Source: Escherichia coli (GTDB lineage Bacteria; Pseudomonadota; Gammaproteobacteria; Enterobacterales; Enterobacteriaceae). From it: a stretch of DNA of 64,000 nucleotides. Made by a program: the position numbers and the translations under genes. The stretch lies in the NCBI RefSeq assembly GCF_024700885.2, contig NZ_CP117016.1; one strand, written 5' to 3'. Every line of letters begins with the position of its first letter. The stretch's first letter is position 1. Below, piece by piece: positions 33,006 through 33,395 of this stretch. Below the pieces are notes generated by a model. The model saw only the letters and a program-made list of their open reading frames with translations, made no database searches and had not been told where the DNA came from.

Positions 33006-33021
33006 CATTATTGTTAATCAA

Positions 33022-33055
33022 TTCGACCAATCAGCAAATATGCTGACTGGTCGAA
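33022..33055. repeat. Near-perfect inverted repeat (ttcgaccaatcagca / tgctgactggtcgaa) just after the elaD stop
   Basis: 13/14-bp arms with 4-nt spacer; not followed by a T-run, so not a classic terminator. Confidence 0.6.
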
Positions 33056-33395
33056 CATAGTTTGCTAAAAAGTCATCACTGACTGATGCCAGTCACACCA
33101 TCCACCAGTTCAATCTACGGGTATTTCCAGCGTATCGCGGCACGCGATTTCTGGTCTGTTGATGTAGTGGATTGTAGTTGCTGACTTTTCTTACCCTCAG
33201 ATTTCTGCCCCCTGTCAATTCAATCTGCCAATAAATAACATAATTATATTTTTTTCTCATATGAATTCCTTTTTAAAATAGCGAACCCACTGTAAAAAAA
33301 TACTTTTTGTATATCTCTACCAACCGTAATAAAATAAACACTCACAACTCATTATAAATAATTATAAAATAACGCCTTTTATTGATAATTTACAT

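Follow-up and report, generated by a model that had tools for sequence, protein, structure and literature searches.

The 390-bp spacer between elaD and yfbL in an Escherichia coli genome is very probably an eroded remnant of yfbK

The sequence analysed in this work is a 64,000-nucleotide stretch of Escherichia coli DNA (RefSeq assembly GCF_024700885.2, contig NZ_CP117016.1), referred to below as the window. Within it, two genes on the plus strand enclose the spacer of interest: elaD (31782–33005), which encodes an ElaD/SseL-family deubiquitinase of 407 amino acids (aa) and is identified by the list of open reading frames (ORFs), by the Pfam families PF22103, PF22102, and PF02902 and by the RefSeq annotation of strain 1190, and yfbL (33396–34370), which encodes an M28 metallopeptidase of 324 aa that is intact in the window (ORF list, Pfam Peptidase_M28, and RefSeq). 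With the last base of the elaD stop codon at 33005 and the first base of yfbL at 33396, the ORF coordinates bear out the spacer length of exactly 390 bp given in the initial annotation of this DNA. Over positions 32400–34000 the window matches E. coli strain 1190 with 100% identity, and in that strain RefSeq annotates elaD and yfbL and nothing between them. The gene order in K-12 MG1655 is elaD (plus strand), yfbK (minus strand, 1728 bp), yfbL (plus strand), yfbM, yfbN, yfbO, yfbP, and nuoN, and the order in the window is elaD, the spacer, yfbL, yfbM, and nuoN. K-12 YfbK is a lipoprotein of 575 aa with a vWA domain. The statement in the initial annotation that K-12 carries yfbK between elaD and yfbL agrees with the K-12 locus, where the gene occupies 1728 bp on the minus strand; K-12 does not have the same spacer with yfbK located elsewhere.

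The spacer had also been described as very AT-rich and as non-coding, and each description holds in part. The first applies only to the right 135 bp (33261–33395), which have a GC content of 23.7%; the left 255 bp (33006–33260) have 40% GC, and the spacer as a whole (34.4%) is close to elaD (35.8%), the value for the entire window being 52%. The second is correct for practical purposes, although remnants of the yfbK coding sequence can be recognised in 185 of the 390 bp.

These remnants were mapped by a blastn comparison of the window with the K-12 elaD–yfbL locus (L001), which yielded three matches. The first, between window 32900–33115 and L001 3229–3444, has 91% identity overall and a higher identity past the elaD stop codon (~94.5% to K-12 over the left flank, 33006–33115), and it covers the end of elaD, a hairpin, and the last 40 nt of yfbK. 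This yfbK 3' remnant lies at 33076–33115 on the minus strand (L001 3405–3444), with the complement of the stop codon at 33076–33078, and it holds a small palindrome. The second match, between window 33115–33135 and L001 3657–3677, is a piece from the interior of yfbK (19/21 match, 15 exact), which matches at 20 of 21 positions in the corresponding alleles of Ec42 and TUM1226. It represents a 20-nt island at 33116–33135 on the minus strand, equivalent to nt ~1456–1475 of K-12 yfbK, that encodes IRWKYPQ and is in frame in P0122, a metagenomic product considered below. The third match, between window 33136–33500 and L001 5001–5374 (73%), covers the first 132 nt of yfbK, the yfbK–yfbL intergenic region, and the start of yfbL. 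The yfbK 5' remnant (33136–33260, minus strand) corresponds to K-12 codons 1–44 (L001 5001–5132, ~75% identity), with the complement of the start codon at 33258–33260; it is 125 nt long in the window compared with 132 nt in K-12, owing to 5-nt and 2-nt losses near the yfbK 5' end by which both the reading frame and the lipobox were destroyed. The remaining 33261–33395 are ~70% identical to the K-12 yfbK–yfbL intergenic region (137 bp, 27.7% GC). This AT-rich right third of the spacer would be the former divergent promoter region of yfbK and yfbL, now serving only yfbL, and the frequency of promoter-like hexamers at 33335–33370 is not above chance.

All three yfbK pieces are colinear with K-12 yfbK, have the same orientation, and lie at the syntenic site between elaD and yfbL. 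Since the C at 33115 is common to the first two matches and is counted once, the retained sequence amounts to 40 + 20 + 132 = 192 nt, and 1536 of the 1728 nt of the gene have been removed. In K-12 coordinates the deleted blocks measure 213 nt and 1323 nt, both of which are multiples of three. The corresponding junctions are at 33115/33116 and 33135/33136, and they show microhomology of 1 nt only (the shared C) and no repeat. When both deletions are applied in silico to K-12 yfbK, an open frame of 63 codons results (MRNKNIIMLLMSSLILSGCGPQPENKESQQQQPSTPTEQQVLAAIRWKYPQIELADGVTDISQ). In the window the ORF list contains a chimeric ORF of 55 codons on the minus strand (33093–33260), which begins at the old yfbK ATG and has no Pfam match; this ORF is not conserved, and we judge it to be non-functional.

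The same two junctions are present in 7/7 alleles that were examined (viz. the window, O157:H7 FRIK2069, CX05, isolate 3702594, Ec42, TUM1226, and the metagenome allele L015), and this identity of the junctions indicates that the scar arose once. At the old yfbK start codon, O157 and TUM1226 have ATA and CX05 has an altered sequence, the Ec42 scar has an extra gap of 16 alignment columns, and the CX05 scar has indels other than those of the window. At the level of sequence, such allele-specific frameshifts and start-codon losses are the pattern of a neutral remnant. We consider it very probable that the spacer is what is left of yfbK after two deletions and subsequent erosion, the scar having spread from one event. 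In the window the remnant has decayed further by indels, and it encodes nothing conserved.

The distribution of the scar was determined among 5426 complete E. coli genomes with a 211-nt query extending over both junctions (33060–33270), for which full coverage was required. By this measure the scar is present in 2575 genomes (~47%), and the matches include O157:H7, O55:H7, and ATCC 11303; O104:H4 has the same spacer. The gene itself, scored as present where at least 80% of the K-12 yfbK query was covered, is found in 2514 of the 5426 genomes, and many other genomes match the yfbK query at nt 1–40 only, which is exactly the retained 3' end. The ~337 genomes that are in neither state include H31, in which an IS1 lies inside yfbK, and the eroded loci of EC67 and NT1N34 described below.

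The polarity of this difference was assessed by an outgroup scan of species-representative genomes with strict exact YfbL peptide patterns, which provided only two Escherichia loci from outside E. coli, neither of them from E. albertii or E. fergusonii. The cryptic-clade Escherichia sp. MOD1-EC7003 (L007) carries rbn, an intact yfbK, yfbL, yfbM, and yfbN at the same site. The divergent genome SCPM-O-B-8794 (L008), which is labelled E. coli but is a separate GTDB species representative, shares 81–89% identity with K-12 over rbn, elaA, elaB, and yfbL, and has the order rbn, a yfbK remnant, yfbL, yfbM, and nuoN, without elaD. In this remnant (L008 7619–7863), nt 18–141 of yfbK are joined to nt 1610–1728; it keeps sequence that is absent from the E. 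coli scar and vice versa, and it is thus the product of an independent deletion. A scar of this type was absent from the complete E. coli genomes. The L008 remnant leaves a 41-codon ORF (P0121), which was found on 41 contigs. The matches to the K-12 YfbK protein were dominated by sequences from E. coli and were uninformative about outgroups.

A gene named yfbK is also known from Salmonella, where, to judge by its name and locus number, it presumably occupies the syntenic site. In Salmonella Typhimurium LT2 it is STM2315 (1782 bp), and a DT12a strain carries a truncated copy (PMC3853940); Paratyphi C has the gene as a pseudogene, and Typhi and Paratyphi A lack it (PMC2640428, Table 3). The E. 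coli scar resembles these Salmonella losses in that the same gene is recurrently inactivated or lost in particular lineages, with the flanking synteny kept and pieces of the gene remaining. It differs from them in being an old single event that roughly half of the species has in common, and not a recent host-adaptation lesion, and in having arisen by two in-frame deletions with a 20-nt island left between them. Together, the yfbK remnants in the spacer and the presence of the gene in outgroups indicate that presence of yfbK is the ancestral state and that the spacer is a deletion scar.

The part of the scar to the right of the second junction is unusually divergent. The left edge of this tract (33136–33470, ~335 bp) coincides exactly with the right deletion junction, and its right end, read by eye from the alignment at ~33470, falls within the signal-peptide codons of yfbL. 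The window and O157 scars are 91% identical to each other here, but both reach only 73–78% identity with the yfbK-positive alleles, a distance equal to that of a different Escherichia species; the window and L008 are 79% identical. Yet the yfbK-positive alleles, including that of the cryptic clade, are 93–95% alike from the yfbK 5' end across the intergenic region to nt 105 of yfbL, and the rest of yfbL in the window (33501–34370) is 96–98% identical to them. In O157 the tract stops near the yfbL start, and in the window it continues through the signal-peptide codons, which are still in frame. The divergence runs into codons of a signal peptide that is still functional, and simple decay after the deletion cannot account for it. 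The alignments suggest an ancient class of alleles, or import from a distant relative, with later reshuffling by recombination, L015 being such a recombinant: this allele is of the divergent type up to window ~33195 and K-12-like beyond. Neither a donor nor an intact gene of the divergent yfbK type was found when these were sought. The tract also shares many states with the divergent Escherichia L008.

The divergent tract allows a reading in which the haplotype without yfbK is not a neutral scar but an ancient alternative allele, either introgressed or maintained for a long time, that covers the control region shared by yfbK and yfbL together with the signal peptide of yfbL and is kept by selection. 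We regard this as improbable. If it were true, the haplotype would be held at its frequency of ~50%, e.g. through yfbL expression or export, and the retained yfbK promoter together with the hairpin might give a short RNA convergent with elaD.

The hairpin just mentioned is the most conspicuous structural feature of the left part of the spacer. It is a stem-loop at 33022–33055 with arms at 33022–33036 and 33041–33055 and a 4-nt loop (AATA), and the near-perfect inverted repeat noticed there in the initial annotation is real, with arms of 15 nt that are complementary at 14/15 positions in the window and form 8 G-C pairs. It lies between the converging stop codons, 16 nt past that of elaD and 20 nt beyond that of the former yfbK, a position that is common for terminators serving two convergent genes. 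The RNA folds in the window have energies of −20.7 kcal/mol (plus strand) and −26.8 kcal/mol (minus strand), with z-scores of −4.5 and −7.2, and 0/200 shuffles were as stable; the fold in K-12 has ~−29 kcal/mol, and the folds range from −20.7 to −29.6 kcal/mol, with z from −4.5 to −8.6. The hairpin is found at the same position in the yfbK-positive strains K-12, 2003-3014, and KN12-1 and in all of the scar alleles, and most strains have a perfect 15-bp stem. The variants that occur are one-sided only (viz. G>A in the window and C>T in CX05, TUM1226, and KN12-1), and this slight variation provides no covariation support. The 69-bp K-12 intergenic segment that contains the hairpin is present once per genome (median) in 4199 of the 5426 genomes, and the arm sequence was not found elsewhere in the 64-kb window. 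The hairpin is absent from genomes that lack elaD, e.g. Ecol_448, and because it is missing wherever elaD is missing, it travels with elaD. We infer that it is an element of the elaD 3' flank which was present before the loss of yfbK and played no part in the deletion.

The likeliest function of the stem-loop, to which we give somewhat better than even chances, is that of a putative RNA 3' end or terminator of elaD; it would end or stabilise the elaD transcript and would formerly have done the same for the converging yfbK transcript, as a shared 3'-end hairpin. The stem is followed by CATAGTTT on the plus strand and by TTGATTAA on the minus strand, each with 4 T in 8 positions. These weak T-runs on both strands are the reason why a consensus terminator scan does not call the hairpin, and with such weak U-tracts it may mark a trimmed 3' end and not a classical intrinsic terminator. 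Bidirectional intrinsic terminators between convergent genes are a known concept in E. coli from SEnd-seq and Term-seq. The present element is like them in being one strong symmetric stem-loop between converging stops that are 16 and 20 nt away, but it differs in its weak U-tracts, in having no K-12 Term-seq 3' end in the tables searched, and in that the yfbK partner is gone in the window. Extragenic palindromes of the REP/BIME type likewise lie at gene 3' ends, but the hairpin has a single copy per genome and has no evident resemblance to the REP consensus; a repeated extragenic palindrome (REP/BIME or MITE) was rejected, as the sequence occupies one place per genome and its arms are unique in the window. 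When 32500–33900 was scanned against Rfam 15 with a permissive cut-off, no match rose above chance level, the best score being 23.7 bits where the gathering thresholds are 39.5–100. Rho termination inside genes is expected for AT-rich, poorly expressed island DNA, and the expression of this island in the laboratory may be too low for 3' ends to be detected. In K-12, regions of Rho termination are reported at 2383800(+) inside elaD, at 2386323(+) inside yfbL, and at 2382764(−) antisense to elaD, and the curated Term-seq table of 3' ends has no entry tagged elaD, yfbK, or yfbL (PMC7815308).

The inverted repeat could also be understood as an operator for a DNA-binding regulator of elaD or yfbK in place of an RNA structure. 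Its perfect dyad symmetry in most strains and the single copy kept in 4199 genomes would suit such a site, the half-sites contain TGGTC/GACCA (cf. GntR/FadR-type boxes), and a gSELEX peak for LldR has been reported in K-12 yfbK (PMC10272880). However, arms of 15 bp with a 4-nt gap are far longer than operators usually have and are characteristic of RNA hairpins, both genes end before they reach the site, which is thus not at a promoter, and the two reported LldR-like boxes map to L001 4392 and 4607, in the deleted interior of yfbK. A search for a TGGT-N(1-5)-ACCA box in the spacer (33006–33395) found none. An operator is thus improbable, and we consider the putative 3'-end hairpin of elaD to be the better description of the repeat.

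The second short palindrome pointed out in the initial annotation is also present, as TGACTG-ATGC-CAGTCA at 33078–33093 (6+6), inside the retained yfbK 3' end and overlapping its stop codon. It folds no better than shuffled sequences (z −1.0 and −0.5), and although it is the only call of the consensus terminator scan (33093–33078, minus strand), its fold is not significant. The further suggestion that the palindromes might be a recombination site or mark the boundary of the indel finds no support, as the large repeat lies 60 bp to the left of the junction at 33115/33116 and is intact in yfbK-positive genomes, including K-12. Palindromes can promote deletion through replication slippage, and both of those discussed here are less than 100 bp from the left junction; even so, it is very unlikely that either of them caused or bounds the yfbK deletion, whether as a recombination site or as a hairpin-prone sequence, for the large repeat is outside the junction and is retained in both states, the small palindrome lies 22 bp inside the kept yfbK 3' end, microhomology at the junctions does not exceed 1 nt and no repeat occurs there, and the independent deletion of L008 arose in a genome without the hairpin.

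A rare mosaic form of the scar was observed in a metagenome contig (ERZ28663831 scaffold_2763; L015 1937–2128), in which the 63-codon frame, the signal peptide, and the lipobox are intact and which encodes the 63-residue P0122 with the same junctions as the scar in the window. The occurrence in metagenome contigs of a full 63-codon ORF with an intact lipobox (P0122 and P0123), the fact that both deletions are multiples of three, and the annotation by PGAP of short "hypothetical proteins" inside the scar of some genomes could be taken to mean that the scar is a functional mini-gene under selection, encoding a lipoprotein of 63 residues with a signal peptide, a lipobox, and a 44-residue tail. 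There is very little probability of this, given that differing lesions disrupt the ORF in the window and in the five other complete-genome alleles examined, that an allele with the intact ORF is present in none of the 5426 complete E. coli genomes (the best full-length match being 85%), and that two deletions are both in frame by chance in 1 of 9 cases, which is unremarkable. A 40-aa N-terminal query of the divergent type matched only remnants, namely one 41-aa product and two 63-aa products.

The initial annotation had left it open whether the spacer is the ancestral empty site or a deletion scar; the scar is upheld, with both yfbK ends and the internal 20 nt colinear and the gene present in outgroups, and the empty site is not. 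That the short spacer is original and yfbK was inserted in the K-12 lineage is extremely unlikely in spite of the absence of yfbK from about half of the E. coli genomes and of the low-GC, island-like character of the elaD–yfbP region with its many presence/absence variants, because an insertion cannot leave the start, the stop, and an internal island of the inserted gene in an empty site, whereas the spacer holds both termini and the internal piece in the correct order and orientation, with a 20/21 colinear match and 94% identity over 40 nt that exclude chance, and because an intact yfbK is found in cryptic-clade Escherichia, a gene named yfbK exists in Salmonella, and L008 has a second, independent deletion with other junctions.

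The yfbK scar with the conserved hairpin alongside is an ordinary, very common gene-deletion remnant, as it is shared by about half of E. coli and the hairpin is not the cause of the deletion, and its importance extends little beyond annotation. The "empty" elaD–yfbL spacer of about half of E. coli, with O157:H7, O104:H4, and E. coli B included, would be a yfbK pseudogene remnant of single origin, and the short "hypothetical proteins" that are annotated in it in some genomes would consequently be artefacts. The conspicuous palindrome is most likely the conserved 3'-end hairpin of the elaD cassette, and its reading as a recombination signal is unsupported. E. coli joins Salmonella in providing evidence that yfbK is dispensable and has been lost repeatedly, and for studies of recombination in the elaD–nuo region the scar offers a simple haplotype marker.

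Several other variants of the same island were encountered. In EC67 (L013 3898–4066), elaD is truncated to 111 bp and joined to sequence ~60 nt upstream of yfbL; in NT1N34 (L014 3641–6204), the island is eroded by IS5 and IS1 insertions; and Ec42 provides another single-strain erosion site (L011 4531–4989). The erosion in this set of single strains (viz. EC67, NT1N34, and Ec42) comprises IS5/IS1 in elaD and yfbL and an IS200C between yfbM and nuoN. The elaD gene is frameshifted in Ec42 and in TUM1226. Genomes of the O157:H7 type carry a clean 326-bp deletion in yfbL (window 33658–33983), which is annotated there as a frameshifted pseudogene; the window has an intact yfbL. Coverage of the query extends through the yfbL 33658–33983 region in only 553 of the 2575 scar genomes, so that yfbL, the divergently transcribed neighbour, is also broken in ~78% of the genomes that lack yfbK. 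A second presence/absence polymorphism of the island concerns the gap between yfbM and nuoN, which is ~66 bp in the window (34973–35038) compared with yfbN, yfbO, and yfbP in K-12 (~2.6 kb, L001 6848–9457); these three genes are also missing from O157, B2, 2003-3014, and KN12-1, and at least yfbN is present in the cryptic-clade L007.

A 2025 paper on the distribution of ElaD makes no mention of yfbK, yfbL, rbn, or the flanking synteny. In the genomes without elaD (the Ecol_448 type, L007, and L008), 144 unrelated bp replace a segment of 1493 bp (L004 5857–6000 vs. L001 1939–3431). Besides elaD and its flanks, the missing segment takes in the hairpin and the small palindrome as well as the terminal 27 nt of K-12 yfbK; its right edge is at window ~33102, and as it reaches into the yfbK 3' end, the C-terminal 9 codons of K-12 YfbK belong to the elaD-specific segment.
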